From IMG/VR virus record IMGVR_UViG_2703718811_000015, positions 1-11,923 of that record: 11,923 nucleotides of DNA, one strand, 5' to 3'. Made by a program: the position numbers. Shown one piece after another: positions 3,001 to 9,000 of this stretch (positions are counted from its first letter, which is position 1; every line of letters begins with the position of its first letter). This DNA comes from a virus (Duplodnaviria > Heunggongvirae > Uroviricota > Caudoviricetes).

Positions 3001-6000
3001 CAAATCCTCGCCATTCTCAAGCCAGTTGCGAACGATATCGCCAACCAGATCCGAACTCCCCATGATGGATGCGAGCTGCTCCTCGTTGTAATCCCGTCCA
3101 AATACGGTATTACTGGTTTTTACGCCAGCCAGATCAGGCATTGAGGGGGCAAAAAACTCGTAATCGCTCAGATCACCACGCTGAATAAGTTCACGAATCG
3201 TTGTAGGCTTGATCAGGCATTCGTAGTACTTCCCCATCCAGGCTGCGAACGGGGTACCGGAAAGTCCAAGAACCCTGATGTCTCTGTCCCGGATAACCTC
3301 AAGTAACGCACGACGCTTCATGTGTGCTTCATCGATGATCAGCAGATCGATGTTGTCAGGAAACTCACGACGGATCAGAGTGTCGGCACTGGCAATCTGA
3401 ATCAGTCGTGACGGGTCATAGTTAGGGTGATCACGCCATACAAAACTGATTTCTTCCCACGGCAAACCGTATTCGGTGAAACGTTCCGCTGTCTGGTTCA
3501 GCAGGATGGTGTACGGACAGACAAACATCACCCGCATACCACGTTCAACCATTCCGGCGGTGACGAATGCTGCAAGACCAGTTTTGCCAGAGCCAGTGGG
3601 TGCGTACATCAGGTACGTGCGATGCTGTTTCCACTGGTGCCGCAGCTGGTTTAAACCGCGCTCCTGAGCAAAGTTTGGGATTATTTTCAGCATGACGCCC
3701 CCTTACTACGTGATTTACCCGTTGCCGGGATCACGTCGATCTCATCGCAAACGTATTGATCCGGATTACGTGAACAGCGCAGAAGCACGATACCAGGAAT
3801 GCCGTATAGCTTGAGTCTGCGCAGTTTCAGTATTGAACGTGCCCGTGGTGACGCTCTGTCCACCTCGATCGCGCACCGTTCACCAGATGGGGCAACGACC
3901 ATGATATCGACGAATCCGCGCTTACCGTTGCCCATATCAACCAGATAATTACGTTCGATCGCCAGTCCGGCATCACGCAATTTGGCAGCCAGCACATAAT
4001 CAAACGTGACCTTGTCTTTTCCGGTGTAGAATTTCTTTCCGAGCAGGCTGATAACCACATGTTTGATGAACATGGTACTATTTCCACTGTGATAGTTAGC
4101 ATGATAATAATTTAGCCAGAAACTATCGCGTCCTATACAGTGATCTACCTAACCTATGGAGCTGCCTTTCTCTGGTAGTGCCCTTACGGGCACGGATGTT
4201 ACAGATCTGCCCCCTTACCCCCTTCTTAGTAAAATTTCAAGCGAAATAATTTCACGCGAAATTATTTCACAAGAAACAATACCTTATTGAGGTTTTACTC
4301 CTTCCGTACCGCTACTGGCGAAAGCATCCAGCCACGGCTGGCTCTCGCGTACTTCTGGACATACACCCGTAACCGGGTGTTGGCGCTCCGTCTTGCCCTG
4401 TTGCCCTTCCTGAACGATACAGGCTCCTTGTCCCACTCTTCCTGGTACACTCTCGCGTACTCTGCTGCAATTTTTACCCTGGTGGTCGGGTCTAGCTGTA
4501 ACAATTGCTCCTGTATCCAGTCCCGATCAGCATCGCTGTACTGATCGGGCATAACCGTTTTGATTTGCCTGTTCACTCACACCTCCGGTGCGCTGTGTGT
4601 CCAGGATTAATCATCGCCTCTTACGAACGCAGGGAACGGACGAACCTCTTCCGCCTCAACTGTGCCGTCATCAAAGGTTTTGACGTATATTTCTCGTCCG
4701 ACGAGAAGCGCTTTACTGATTGCACTCTGCGCCACGCCAAAGTCCTTAGCGGCTTTCTTTTGGCCGAACCTGTATACGTAATCAGCCAGGGTCTCTTTTT
4801 TCATCGCCATAACTGACTCCTTCAAAATGCCCATATCATTACGCACAGTTATTAAAATGTCAACACCGCAGATATTTCATTACATATAACCAAAGGTGAT
4901 ATGGTATGAACATGAAAAAGAAACCGTTAACCCCTGAGCAACTGGAAGACGCCAAGCGTCTGAAAAGTATTTTTAACGCTAAAAAGAAAGAGTTAGGCCT
5001 GTCGCAGGAATCATTAGCCTATGAATTAGGTGTTACCCAAAGCGCTGTTAATCAGCTAATGGCTGGCATCAACGCCATAAATGCCAGCCACGCAGCACAG
5101 CTTGCTAAGATACTGAATGTAAAGGTCGGAGATTTCAGTCCCAGCCTGGCAAAATCTATTGCAGAAATGGCGCTCGCAATTGAAGAGCCATTAACTCGTG
5201 TCCCCGCTTACGAATATCCGTTACTCTCCTGCGTACAAGCTGGCGCATTCTCAATGGATGATATTTCGTACACCGCAAAAGATGCGATTAAATGGATCTC
5301 CACCACCACAAAAGCCAGTGACAGGTCGTTCTGGCTGGAGGTCAAGGGGCATTCAATGACCGCACCGCAGGGTGGTAAACCCAGTTTCCCTGAAGGGATG
5401 CTGATACTCGTTGACCCTGAACGGGAGATTGAGGATGGCGATTTTTGCGTGGCCCGAATGAACGGCGATGAATTCACCTTCAAACGATTCATTCGTGAGA
5501 GCGGTAAAGCGTACCTGGAGCCGCTCAACCCACGATTCGACATGATTGAGTGTAACGAAAACTGCCAGTTTGTCGGAAAGGTCATCAAATCGCAGTGGAA
5601 TGATGAGACTTTTGATTGATCTCAAAGAGCGATTTAACATCCATCACGTCCTTTGGGGCGTGGAGGATGTCAACATCACTAATTTAACTAGCAAGGTCGT
5701 GCCGAAGGTGTTGTAATGAAAGATATTATTAATGTTTCAAGTCTGGACGACATTGAATCTTTGTTCGCAAGGTTAGATGGTGGCGAAGAGATAACTATCG
5801 ACAGGATCAAGTTAGACCTCTTCAATAATGTGAATTTTAAGATTTATGGTGATCCTTCTCGCTACAACGGAACACTTCCCTCTTCTCTGGCTCAGGGTTT
5901 ATGTGAGTTTCAGACTGAAATTTATAAAGTTTTCACACTGATAAAATATAAAACGGACAACCTTCAAAGGTTAACTGGTAAAGATAAAGATGAAGCAGAG

Positions 6001-9000
6001 ATCATCTTTACCATTAATGAAGGTTGTACTGATATACTTGCTGCATTAACAGAGCTTTTTGAAGCATTCGGTAAAGCCTTTGAGAAGGTCACACACGGTA
6101 TGAGTCCTAGCCAAAAAACATTATGCTTCTTGTTTGCTGTCACCGTTATAGGCGGTGCGTGGGTTGGTACATCATACTTAGAGAAAAAAGCCGAAGTAGA
6201 AGTTAAGCAAGAAGAAACAAAGCTTGAAGAAGCCAAGATTAAATCAGAAAACGAGCGCATGACGATCTTAAGGGACGGAATGCTTGAGTCGATTAGAGCT
6301 AAAGCGGGCATAGATGCTGTAGAGCGCGCCGAAGGGATTCAAGAGCATACTGCAAAAGCGTATACAGGGGTATTAAAAGGCGCGTCTGATGCTGACAAAA
6401 TTGTCATATCAGGCGCAAGCACCGTTGAACTGTCTAACAAAGAAATCCACGAACTAATCAAGAATCCTATCGAAAAAGCAAAAAAAGAAGAAAGAAATCT
6501 TGAATTAGTCATTGATGGGATCAAGCGTACTGCGGAAAAGATAACCCTAAGCTGCCGCGAACCATCTAGTGAAGACAGTTTCCCTGTTTCAGTCGACACG
6601 TCGTTCATAGATGATAAAGACGAGATCGCCATACTGTTTGATGCAATGAAAGAAAACAGGACAGTAAAAATCTTGGGAAGCTACACGATACGAGCAGGTG
6701 TAATAGAAAACGGAAACGCATCAACCATCACTCGCCCATAACAGAAAATTTAACCCCGGCCCCTGCGCCGGGCTTTTCTTTGCATATCCCCTCCTGTTAT
6801 CTGTCCCCTTAAAAAATAAATCACTTTAAAAATCAGTTAAGTAATAATTTTTCGCCCTAAAAAGCACTGGCGGTATTTACATGAAAATCACCGCAAGTTA
6901 TATTTATTTCAAGCCAGAAACATCGCGCCCTTACACAGGGCTACATAAATCAGTCGTACGGCGCGACTTAACCCGCCGCAAAATGCTCTTTAACAATCTG
7001 GAGCTTTACAGCGTCAATGACCTGTTTAGACCCCTACACGTAAACGTGCTGTATCATCGGGTGCGATCCGGTCGATGAGAGAGTATCCCCGCGCGAGAGC
7101 GAGAACGGCGTGAGAACGGGCAACACTGGCAGGAAGTTGGCGCTGACCAATACAGGGAATGTTTTGGGGTGTGGTGAAGGGTTCATGGACGGGAATATGT
7201 CGCACGTAAAGCGGCGAGGCCCGAGGGACTATTGCTGAAGATAAGTAGGCCGAATCGGGTCGAAATGGGTCTCCCACCTGCCACATCGCCAAAGCGTTTC
7301 TGAGAAAGGACGGTATTGACTGCGTGTGATGTCGGGGCTATATTTGGCAAACACCTTATAAAACGGGTGTCGGGATTAGGACCCCGCTGACAATCGAGGC
7401 GATACAGACGCGCCAGCGTCTTTTTTTGTATCGACATACACGCACATCTTATCAATGGTGGGCTGTATGGGGCCGACTTCGGTCGGGCTGGTTCCCTTGA
7501 TTGCCAGTAGTCCTAACCCTGTACAGTCCACCGCCAGCGAGCTTAGGACCTCCTGCGGTGGTTCTCAATCACCAATCAAGGAGGCTGCCATTATGGCTAC
7601 TATCCCTGCCCTTTCTCAACCTGAAATCACCATTCAGAATGGTCGTGCCGTCACAACATCTGTTGCTATTGCAAATTTCTTTGACAAACGACACGAACGT
7701 GTAATTGATAAAGTTCGCAATCTGGAATGTTCGATTGAATTTGCTGAACACAATTTTGTGTCGAGTAAATACACCGACTCAACCGGGCGCAAACTCCCAA
7801 TGTACCAAATCACCAAAAACGGCTTCGTCTTCCTGGTGATGGGATTCACTGGTAAAAAAGCCGCTGCATTCAAGGAAGCCTACATTGCTGAATTCGATCG
7901 CATGGAAAAACAACTATGGGAACAGAAACAACTGGCCCTGTCTTCTCCTGCGATGAATATCAATTTCCCTTTATCGTGGTTTTCAGAGCATCACCCCTAC
8001 GCCACGATGAACTATGTTGATCGCAAAGTTATCAGCCTTGATGCTTCCGTGCTCTTCGATATGCCAAGCCCAACTATGCGCATCCTCAATGAGCTACACA
8101 GCAAGGGCTATAACGTCGATGCAGCTGTCGCCGAATTTAACGCCTTCAAGCATCTGACGGAAGAAATGCGCCGCACGCTACAGGATATTTCAAGACTGTC
8201 AGATCGAAATTCCCGAAAAGGCTTCTCGTTAAGTCTTTAAAGAACAGATCGTTTGACAATGCTGCATTAACGGGGATATATTCCGCCTCATGGTGCTGAA
8301 CACACCTTGCAAAGCGGAGACCGCACCCGTCAGTCATGCGGCTTTTTTATGTCCATTTTTCAGATATGGTCGGGTAGCGCGTATACCGAAAAACAGCCGA
8401 AAGGTTAAGGATACGGGCCGACTTTGCACGGTGTTCAAGTACCTGGCCGCCCTGCTGAACACAGGGCTATCTGAACAAATGCAAAGGACATAAAATATGA
8501 ACTCTCAACTCATCCCCGTATTCAACGGCACCATCGCCAACGAAACTACCCTGTTCTGTAATGCCCGTGATTTACATACTTTTCTTGGGGTAGGTAAACG
8601 CTTTGCGTCTTGGATTACAGAACGCATTGCTGAATATGGTTTCGTTGAAAATCAGGACTATATGATTGCTTCCCAAATTCGGGAAGCAAAAGGTAGAGGC
8701 GGTCACAACCGCAAGGAATACCACCTCACTCTCGATACAGCCAAAGAGTTTGCGATGGTTGAACGTAACGAAAAAGGCCGTCAGATCCGCCGATACTTCA
8801 TCGAGTGCGAAAAGAAACTTCGCCAGAGCCTTTTACCTGCACCAATGAACATCAACTACCCCCTCTCGTGGTTCTCAGAGCATCACCCCTATGCCACGAT
8901 GAACTATGTTGATCGCAAGGTTATCAGCCTTGATGCTTCCGTGCTCTTCGATATGCCAAGCCCGGTGATGCTGCCAACTTACTGATTTAGTGTATGATGG

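Follow-up and report, generated by a model that had tools for sequence, protein, structure and literature searches.

A lambda-like immunity switch of the Eru1 Stx phage type in an IS1-truncated prophage, with a predicted operator map and a probable specificity neighbouring that of lambda

The DNA analysed here, called the window below, is an 11,923-nucleotide stretch of a caudoviricete prophage (positions 1 to 11,923 of IMG/VR record IMGVR_UViG_2703718811_000015), and the element in question is its immunity region, in which a cI-type repressor gene and a cro gene diverge from a right operator region (OR) while a left operator region (OL) lies beyond a cargo gene. The cro gene (4607..4810, minus strand, 67 aa) is preceded by the Shine-Dalgarno sequence AAGGAG at 4817-4822, and cI (4906..5619, plus strand) encodes 237 aa counted from the ATG at 4906; a start at the ATG at 4912, which gives 235 aa, is more likely. 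The 95-bp gap between them holds three 17-mers that overlap the cro promoter PR and the putative cI promoter PRM, which is the layout of the lambda-type switch, and the whole is probably a functional, complete lambda-type lysis/lysogeny switch, to judge from its parts. Its specificity is best read as a neighbouring one, probably hetero-immune with lambda. The cro/OR/cI switch is already known as the immunity type of the Eru1 Shiga toxin (Stx) phages (TL-2011c, P13374, and relatives), which were sequenced and annotated before; what is added here beyond the known module (an operator map, a probable leaderless repressor start and a relaxed operator position 4) is modest.

The Cro protein was described from the sequence as close to lambda Cro, and it is: 33/55 residues are identical (60%), it matches the Pfam Cro family (PF09048, E=3e-34), and it belongs to the lambda Cro fold family. 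It is identical to the Cro proteins of P13374 and STEC1585. The repressor is likewise collinear with lambda cI (J02459), to which it aligns without gaps at 145/236 identities (61%), 56/92 in the N-terminal domain (NTD). Its Pfam domains are HTH_3 (helix-turn-helix; E=8e-10) and Peptidase_S24 (E=9.5e-29), and the closest solved structure, matched over the full length, is lambda repressor (3BDN, E=5e-92). The gap-free alignment keeps all of the residues of self-cleavage, the Ala111-Gly112 site and the Ser149/Lys192 dyad, and with its two domains the protein has the features of a lambda cI-type, LexA-like self-cleaving repressor; the preliminary description's expectation that it is still SOS-cleavable is borne out at the level of these residues. 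The P22 c2 repressor has low similarity to it (37%). Among 50,697 phage records no NTD intermediate between the window's and lambda's was found that is closer than lambda itself. A group of repressors with 68.6% identity was considered as such an intermediate and rejected, being a chimera with the same C-terminal domain and an unrelated NTD.

Two other relatives of this repressor gene deserve mention. In repressors of the Stx2_111430 type (loci L005 and L029-L034) the N-terminal DNA-binding domain is unrelated and the OR is another one, and from the hinge onward the C-terminal domain is ~100% identical to that of the window cI (5200-5619); the sequences indicate that immunity types have exchanged domains at the linker. 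In phage phi191 (locus L004, 3501-4214) the same cI gene is frameshifted, with two internal stops, and is annotated as a 138-aa HTH protein; phi191, deposited as a complete phage, would have a repressor without the cleavage and dimerisation domain.

Five 17-bp operators are predicted, three in OR and two in OL, with centers of neighboring sites 24 bp apart. OR1' (CATTACGCACAGTTATT, 4837..4853) matches the pattern ANNAC-N5-GTNNT, is the least lambda-like of the five (3.8 bits with a matrix built from the lambda half-sites; the matrix of the window's sites, made without OR1', gives it 8.2 bits), and is invariant in 27 related loci. OR2' (CAACACCGCAGATATTT, 4861..4877), one of the lambda matrix's top seven matches in the window, has a left half, CAACACC, that is the same as that of lambda OL2. 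OR3' (TATAACCAAAGGTGATA, 4885..4901) overlaps PRM, is the second-best lambda-matrix match in the window, and is also invariant in the 27 loci; of the two lambda-type half-sites reported here from the sequence, GGTGATA is exact, and the left half reads TATAACC, one mismatch from the TATCACC named. In OL, OL2' (AAGCACTGGCGGTATTT, 6862..6878) fits ANNAC-N5-GTNNT and is among the lambda matrix's top seven, and OL1' (AATCACCGCAAGTTATA, 6886..6902) is the top match of both matrices and is invariant in all relatives; its reported resemblance to lambda OR3 (TATCACCGCAAGGGATA) was confirmed against J02459 at 14/17 positions. A search for a third OL operator, as lambda has, with the matrix made from the window's sites gave none; nowhere does the block vary more than upstream of OL2'.

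The promoters fall where the lambda arrangement would place them. PR (4835..4863, minus strand; -35 TTGACA at 4858-4863, 17-bp spacer, -10 AATGAT at 4835-4840) and PL (6876..6904, plus strand; -35 TTTACA, 17-bp spacer, -10 TATATT) each score 10/12 in the promoter scan. OR2' and OL2' overlap the -35 elements of PR and PL, respectively, by 3 bp, and OR1' and OL1' overlap their -10 elements by 4 bp, exactly as in lambda; the OR2'-OR3' spacing is 24 bp where lambda has 23. PRM, which the promoter scan did not call, is placed at 4900..4912 (plus strand; -10 TATGGT at 4900-4905, start at A4912). Between OR3' and the ATG at 4912 lie 10 nt, as they do in lambda and 12 further representatives of the family, and the repressors of the lambda-like family representatives begin with MKKKPLT or MS(T/A)KKKPLT. 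Because the geometry is that of lambda, the 10-nt distance is family-wide and MKKKPLT starts recur, a lambda-like leaderless PRM is expected, and the cI mRNA is probably leaderless, starting at A4912 and encoding the 235-aa protein.

On this map, cI dimers would bind the five 17-bp operators. Occupation of OR1' and OR2' would turn off PR (and with it cro, the Eru1 helicase and primase genes, and the late genes), and occupation of OL1' and OL2' would turn off PL (the antirepressor and recombination arm); OR3', overlapping PRM, would control the probable leaderless mRNA from 4912. Cro is predicted to read the same five sites, and RecA-stimulated self-cleavage at the Ala-Gly bond would inactivate cI.

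How far does this operator map exceed chance? Matches of 12-14/17 to a lambda operator are weak when taken alone, and 13/17 matches also occur at 8704 and 3465. The support above chance comes from the placement of the sites and not from their individual scores. Across the 11.9-kb window the lambda matrix gives its two highest scores to precisely 6886-6902 and 4885-4901, four of its top seven matches lie in the two ~100-bp intergenic blocks (the others there being 6862-6878 and 4861-4877), and four of the five matches to ANNAC-N5-GTNNT in the window lie inside the same two blocks, spaced 24 or 48 bp apart. Natural variation points the same way. The 27 related loci contain seven OR haplotypes with nine variable positions in the OR block, of which just two lie within the 17-mers (OR2' positions 3 and 10); in the OL block the variable positions are OL2' positions 3 and 7-9, the spacer, and flanking bases. 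OL2' thus occurs as AAGCACCAACGG, AACCACCAACGG and AACCACTAACGG next to an identical cI. Over both blocks none of 16 variable positions falls at half-site positions 2, 4, 5 or 6 (P ~0.004 by a binomial estimate), and 13 diverged lambda-like repressor representatives from IMG/VR show this arrangement of 17-mers as well. The ACTGGCGGT core at 6866-6874, pointed out in the preliminary description, is present, and it was considered as a conserved lambda signature and rejected; ACCAACGGT or ACTAACGGT stands there in relatives with an identical cI (P13374 has ACCAACGGT where the window has ACTGGCGGT), and its identity with lambda is therefore incidental.

The bases that do not vary agree with what the window's Cro should read. 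Its recognition helix, QSAISKALL, has Gln at position H1, Ala at H3 and Lys at H6, and in the Cro "evolutionary code" (PMC6649833) these residues go with A at +2, A at +5 and C at +6, respectively, so that A2, A5 and C6 are expected; in the ten half-sites they are found in 10/10, 10/10 and 9/10 cases. One may still ask if the lambda-like 17-mers are real operators at all, or if their resemblance to lambda is inherited promoter-region sequence and the repressor reads other repeats, such as TCATTAC, which is present twice in OR (4836 and 4877). The best individual site scores do not exceed the range of shuffled-sequence maxima, as such a reading would have it, and yet we consider it highly unlikely, since the second TCATTAC (4877-4883) varies at 4880 and 4883 alongside an identical cI, whereas the 17-mers are fixed at their key positions, their architecture is repeated across the 13 diverged representatives, and the invariant operator positions are those that the published Cro code predicts (PMC6649833).

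The specificity of the repressor is a different matter from the architecture of its sites. The helix-turn-helix of the window cI differs from lambda's, as the preliminary description stated (the lambda helix that it gives is correct). Residues Gln44, Ser45, Asn55 and Gln33 and the Lys3-5 arm are kept, and G43T, G46A (H3), G48N (H5), A49Q (H6), N52A (H9) and Y22F are changes; the positive-control patch is also altered (D38Y, K39E, G43T). The window cI does not have the lambda recognition helix, which is retained in 34 lambda-type IMG/VR loci and in the lambda-type prophage of O104:H4, nor is C present at position 4 (C4) of every half-site, as would be expected of the lambda immunity type: C4 occurs in 4/10 half-sites of the window and in 12/12 of lambda. 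Aligning the operators and helix with those of lambda, as had been proposed, gives a divided answer in which OR3' and OL1' are lambda-like and OR1', OR2', OL2' and the helix differ. With the lambda matrix OR3' (12.6 bits) and OL1' (13.4 bits) are the only sites within the lambda range, and OR1' (see above), OR2' (7.5 bits) and OL2' (8.1 bits) are all below lambda's weakest operator (9.1 bits when left out of the matrix).

A survey of 13 representative lambda-like cI/OR pairs from IMG/VR gives this difference a possible cause. Where H6 is Ala (two lambda types and locus L084), C4 is present in 17/18 OR half-sites, whereas the pairs with Gln at H6 (ten representatives) have it in 2 to 5 of 6. 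Gln at residue 49 thus appears to go with a relaxed half-site position 4, which the sequences suggest as a lead and not as a rule. A structural rationale for the shift is plausible because, in N15 Cro and the 434 and P22 repressors, a Gln at this helix position touches base pairs 4 and 5 (PMC6649833). Those three proteins share the H6 Gln with the window cI; they differ in that their operators belong to other families (ACAA-type and others) and in that their Gln correlates with G at +6, where the window operators keep C. Closer at hand are the sister repressors in IMG/VR, namely the L073 group (QSAVNQFLNGIN), the L088 group (QSGVAQLLNGSN), L036 (QSGVAQLLNGVN), L115 and L084. They have the OR architecture and the MKKKPLT N-terminal arm of the window, and differ from it in NTD sequence (57-70% identity) and in having their own operator sequences. 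The helix of the L073 group starts with the same six residues as the window's, QSAVNQ, and the group likewise has T or C at position 4 (TATTACC, AATCACC). No experimental characterization of any of these sister repressors was found.

Since H3, H5, H6 and H9 differ and the operators no longer require C4, hetero-immunity with lambda is the most likely state, and the second of the two outcomes that had been entertained earlier, drift to a neighbouring specificity, is the one that fits: A2, A5, C6 and the architecture are kept, C4 is lost, and the helix is changed at these four positions. In one direction the sequences leave little latitude, and lambda cI acting on the window operators would certainly be hetero-immune. 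The first outcome, full homo-immunity with lambda, in which the helix differences would be neutral and either repressor would serve both operator sets, we give hardly any credence. It can draw on the identical operator/promoter geometry, on the lambda-range scores of OR3' and OL1' and on the key base contacts that the window cI keeps; OR1', however, which is needed to shut off PR, lacks C4 in both halves, and NTD identity is just 56/92.

The distribution of the two immunity types in complete E. coli genomes also argues against homo-immunity. Three counts were made: the window's cro-OR-cI(NTD) segment is found in 133 genomes, its lambda version in 620, and a concatenated query of the two in 706, so that both types are present in 47 (133 + 620 - 706), where ~15 would be expected if they were independent. 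The 47 span at least three strain backgrounds and include O104:H4 2011C-3493, the O157:H7-like ERL03-1416 and strain G1/2. In 2011C-3493 the Eru1-type module lies at 3298882 and a lambda-type module at 2536547; the latter, the one locus of its kind that was read, is intact (cI 234/237 and Cro 64/66 identical to lambda), and its OR differs from that of lambda by a single base, in OR1. The record of P13374 is a complete phage genome from O104:H4. The O104:H4 Stx2a phage is reportedly inducible. Since that phage can be induced and is infectious, and since Eru1 lysogens yield 1e7-1e8 phage (PMC8044961), the resident lambda-type repressor evidently does not keep it silent. The helix differences, the loss of C4 and the enrichment of co-residence together make full homo-immunity unlikely, and that part of the preliminary description is not supported. 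The module itself is present twice in 3/133 genomes (09-00049, STEC2018-553 and 2015C-3121; 136 places in all), which look like cases of double lysogeny by homo-immune phages.

The cross-scores of the two matrices are asymmetric, and they bear on a further alternative. Scored with the window matrix, lambda OL1 (13.8 bits), OR3 (12.4 bits), OR2 (12.1 bits) and OL3 (12.0 bits) lie within the range of the window's own sites, whereas with the lambda matrix OR1', OR2' and OL2' fall below lambda's weakest operator. The window cI, whose Gln49, Asn48 and Ala46 could make it loose at position 4 (A, T or C), might then also bind lambda OL1, OR2 and OL3, which are the lambda operators with A5 and C6 (or T6) in both halves, with contacts through the retained Gln44, Ser45, Asn55 and Lys3-5. 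Such one-way cross-immunity is possible, and we rate it as unlikely; its consequence, partial repression of lambda PL and PR by a repressor whose phage lambda cI is unable to repress, is doubtful to the same degree. Gly48Asn, one of the changes in the window cI, was reportedly isolated in lambda cI as a substitution that raises affinity. On the other side, Tyr22Phe and Asn52Ala remove two phosphate contacts of the lambda complex, and substitutions of Ala49 (Val, Asp) are defective in lambda cI. The matrices, moreover, rest on 10-12 half-sites and take no account of cooperativity or backbone contacts, and the enrichment of co-resident modules speaks against strong exclusion, with the proviso that such counts are blind to the order of acquisition.

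Neighbouring specificity with hetero-immunity toward lambda therefore stays the reading that we hold to be probable, and several points weigh against it. With 10 half-sites the set of operators is small, and lambda guided part of the search for them; OR1' is a weak site, as is OR2' in its right half. Few independent lineages underlie the association of a relaxed position 4 with Gln at H6. The window matrix gives all six lambda operators 9.4-13.8 bits, and its own left-out sites score 8.2-15.2. Co-residence is not proof of hetero-immunity, homo-immune double lysogens being known to exist, and the 47 include many clonal genomes (O104:H4, O157:H7), with the lambda-type cI read as sequence only. 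In the published literature searched, neither binding or immunity data nor an operator map or cross-immunity test was found for the window's repressor.

The module's family can be stated with precision. The cro-OR-cI segment is 98-100% identical by BLAST to P13374, TL-2011c, VT2phi_272, PA2, PA8 and many others, and the window cI is identical at 237/237 residues to that of P13374, the Stx2a phage of the O104:H4 outbreak; in all, 73 phage records (P13374 and 72 others) carry a 100%-identical cI. The named relatives, which belong to genus Oslovirus, are TL-2011c (NC_019442), P13374 (HE664024, from the 2011 O104:H4 outbreak), VT2phi_272, PA2, PA8 and phi191. The Eru1 Stx phages share with the window the cI and Cro proteins and the OR sequence, Eru1 helicase/primase neighbors, the Rha/Ant arm and the lack of N, cII and cIII. 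They differ from it in three respects: P13374 and phi191 have a methylase and a BsuBI/PstI endonuclease gene between cI and OL where the window has a gene for a 341-aa protein, the center of OL2' is CAA in them and TGG in the window, and the window's left arm has been deleted by IS1. In Eru1 phages a helicase and a primase replace O and P, and N, cII and cIII are absent (Llarena 2021, PMC8044961); the lysogens are very unstable (PMC8044961). It should be noted that "61% to lambda CI" has been given for the repressors of Eru2/3 phages, with Eru1 repressors placed in a separate clade (Fagerlund 2022, PMC8951638). This is at odds with the window cI, which is linked to Eru1 and is itself 61% identical to lambda cI, and a repressor group that includes VT1-Sakai and PA5 (presumably of the Eru2/3 kind) is 48-51% identical to the window cI; going by these identities, the labels may have been swapped in that paper, or 61% identity to lambda may be a coincidence common to both repressor groups.

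The genes around the switch are not those of lambda, as the preliminary description had it: the window lacks N, cII, cIII and rexAB, and its replication genes are of the Eru1 kind. From the left end it contains ninH and ninG and then, on the minus strand, the genes for a DUF1367 protein (eru1C, 763-1212, 149 aa; ORF size and layout as ORF38 of P13374), a Toprim primase (eru1B, 1212-2183, 323 aa; as the P13374 primase) and a DEAD-box helicase (eru1A, 2173-3693, 506 aa; as the P13374 helicase). A helicase, primase and DUF1367 group divergent from the repressor gene is the Eru1-type early region (cf. PMC8044961), and the same layout is annotated in STEC1585 as DEAD/DEAH helicase, DUF7146 and DUF1367 genes. 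Between the helicase gene and cro, where lambda has cII, lie two conserved minus-strand ORFs, 3687-4073 (128 aa, phrog_1347) and 4295-4576 (93 aa, phrog_852), in neither of which a Pfam domain was found. No N-like ORF was found downstream of PL in the window.

The cargo gene (5716..6741, plus strand, 341 aa) belongs to phrog_6191, a family of unknown function, and had no Pfam or PADLOC match; read from the translation, its product has an apparent hydrophobic, possibly membrane-spanning stretch at about residues 135-155. The same gene follows the lambda-immunity cI of mEp332. The cI-OL interval is a cargo hot spot (5716-6741 in the window, 4615-7034 in L001, 3927-4516 in L008 and 4237-5274 in L006), and FHI_NMBU_10 has HicAB there. 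Because the cargo occupies the position of lambda rexAB, it is likely, by analogy, to have a role in defence or exclusion. A bidirectional terminator-like hairpin found by the terminator scan (6755..6772; six G-C pairs and then a T-run) would end the cI-cargo transcript.

Downstream of PL lies a leader of ~550 nt (6905-7455) that contains no conserved ORF and whose sequence is nearly 100% conserved in Eru1 phages. It has a boxB-like hairpin (GCCCTTACACAGGGC, 6926-6940) followed by a perfect rrn-type boxA (TGCTCTTTAACAA, 6984-6996), an order found in rrn operons and unlike that of the lambda nut sites. Because the order is rrn-like and Eru1 phages lack N, the leader suggests an N-independent Nus-factor/boxA antitermination that guards the long untranslated PL transcript from Rho. 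No paper on a boxA-bearing PL leader in a phage without N was found in the literature searched. Three Rfam matches in the window pass the gathering threshold: isrK (7351-7426), which has a promoter (7316-7344) and a terminator (7406-7421) of its own, C4 antisense RNA (7451-7538) and sRNA-Xcc1 (8368-8456). The C4 RNA lies just upstream of the Rha gene (Shine-Dalgarno sequence and ATG at 7593) and the Xcc1-type RNA just upstream of AntA/B (8497); the annotated Rha start at 7455, which overlaps the C4 RNA, is probably wrong. This arrangement of RNAs and antirepressor genes resembles the P1 immI (C4-icd-ant) and Gifsy-1 isrK-anrP modules, and by analogy the C4/Xcc1-type RNAs and antirepressor genes may form a second layer of immunity control.

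The prophage is defective, as had been supposed. The 768-bp insertion sequence IS1 (8964-9731) cuts short both antA/B and yccE, the latter at its 3' end, and joins antA/B to yccE-cbpA, thus replacing everything from within antA/B through int, wrbA, yccJ and agp to the end of yccE. In STEC1585, the closest complete genome (99.9%), the prophage runs on through recombination genes, xis and int into wrbA-yccJ-agp-yccE-cbpA, and by that comparison ~15 kb has been lost (the recombination genes and int/xis, plus wrbA, yccJ and agp). The IS1-yccE junction is common to many E. coli genomes that are not Shiga toxin-producing strains, and the antA/B-IS1 junction is absent from the RefSeq complete E. coli genomes. 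The intact immunity module is locked in place by this deletion.

The same cI, Cro and operators govern how the Stx2a phages responsible for the 2011 O104:H4 and 2006 O103:H25 outbreaks are induced, and the induction of these phages sets the amount of toxin made. Footprinting and reporter studies could be aimed directly at the five proposed sites, the probable leaderless PRM transcript and the relaxed position 4. The module that IS1 has locked in place should confer immunity to superinfection by Eru1-type Stx2a phages. If cross-immunity with lambda is in fact one-way, this cI would also protect its host, O104:H4-type lysogens included, against phages of lambda immunity, and one-way recognition would be a natural route for new immunity specificities to branch off. 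Lambda and about six sister specificities form a natural series in which specificity drifts within an unchanged switch architecture.

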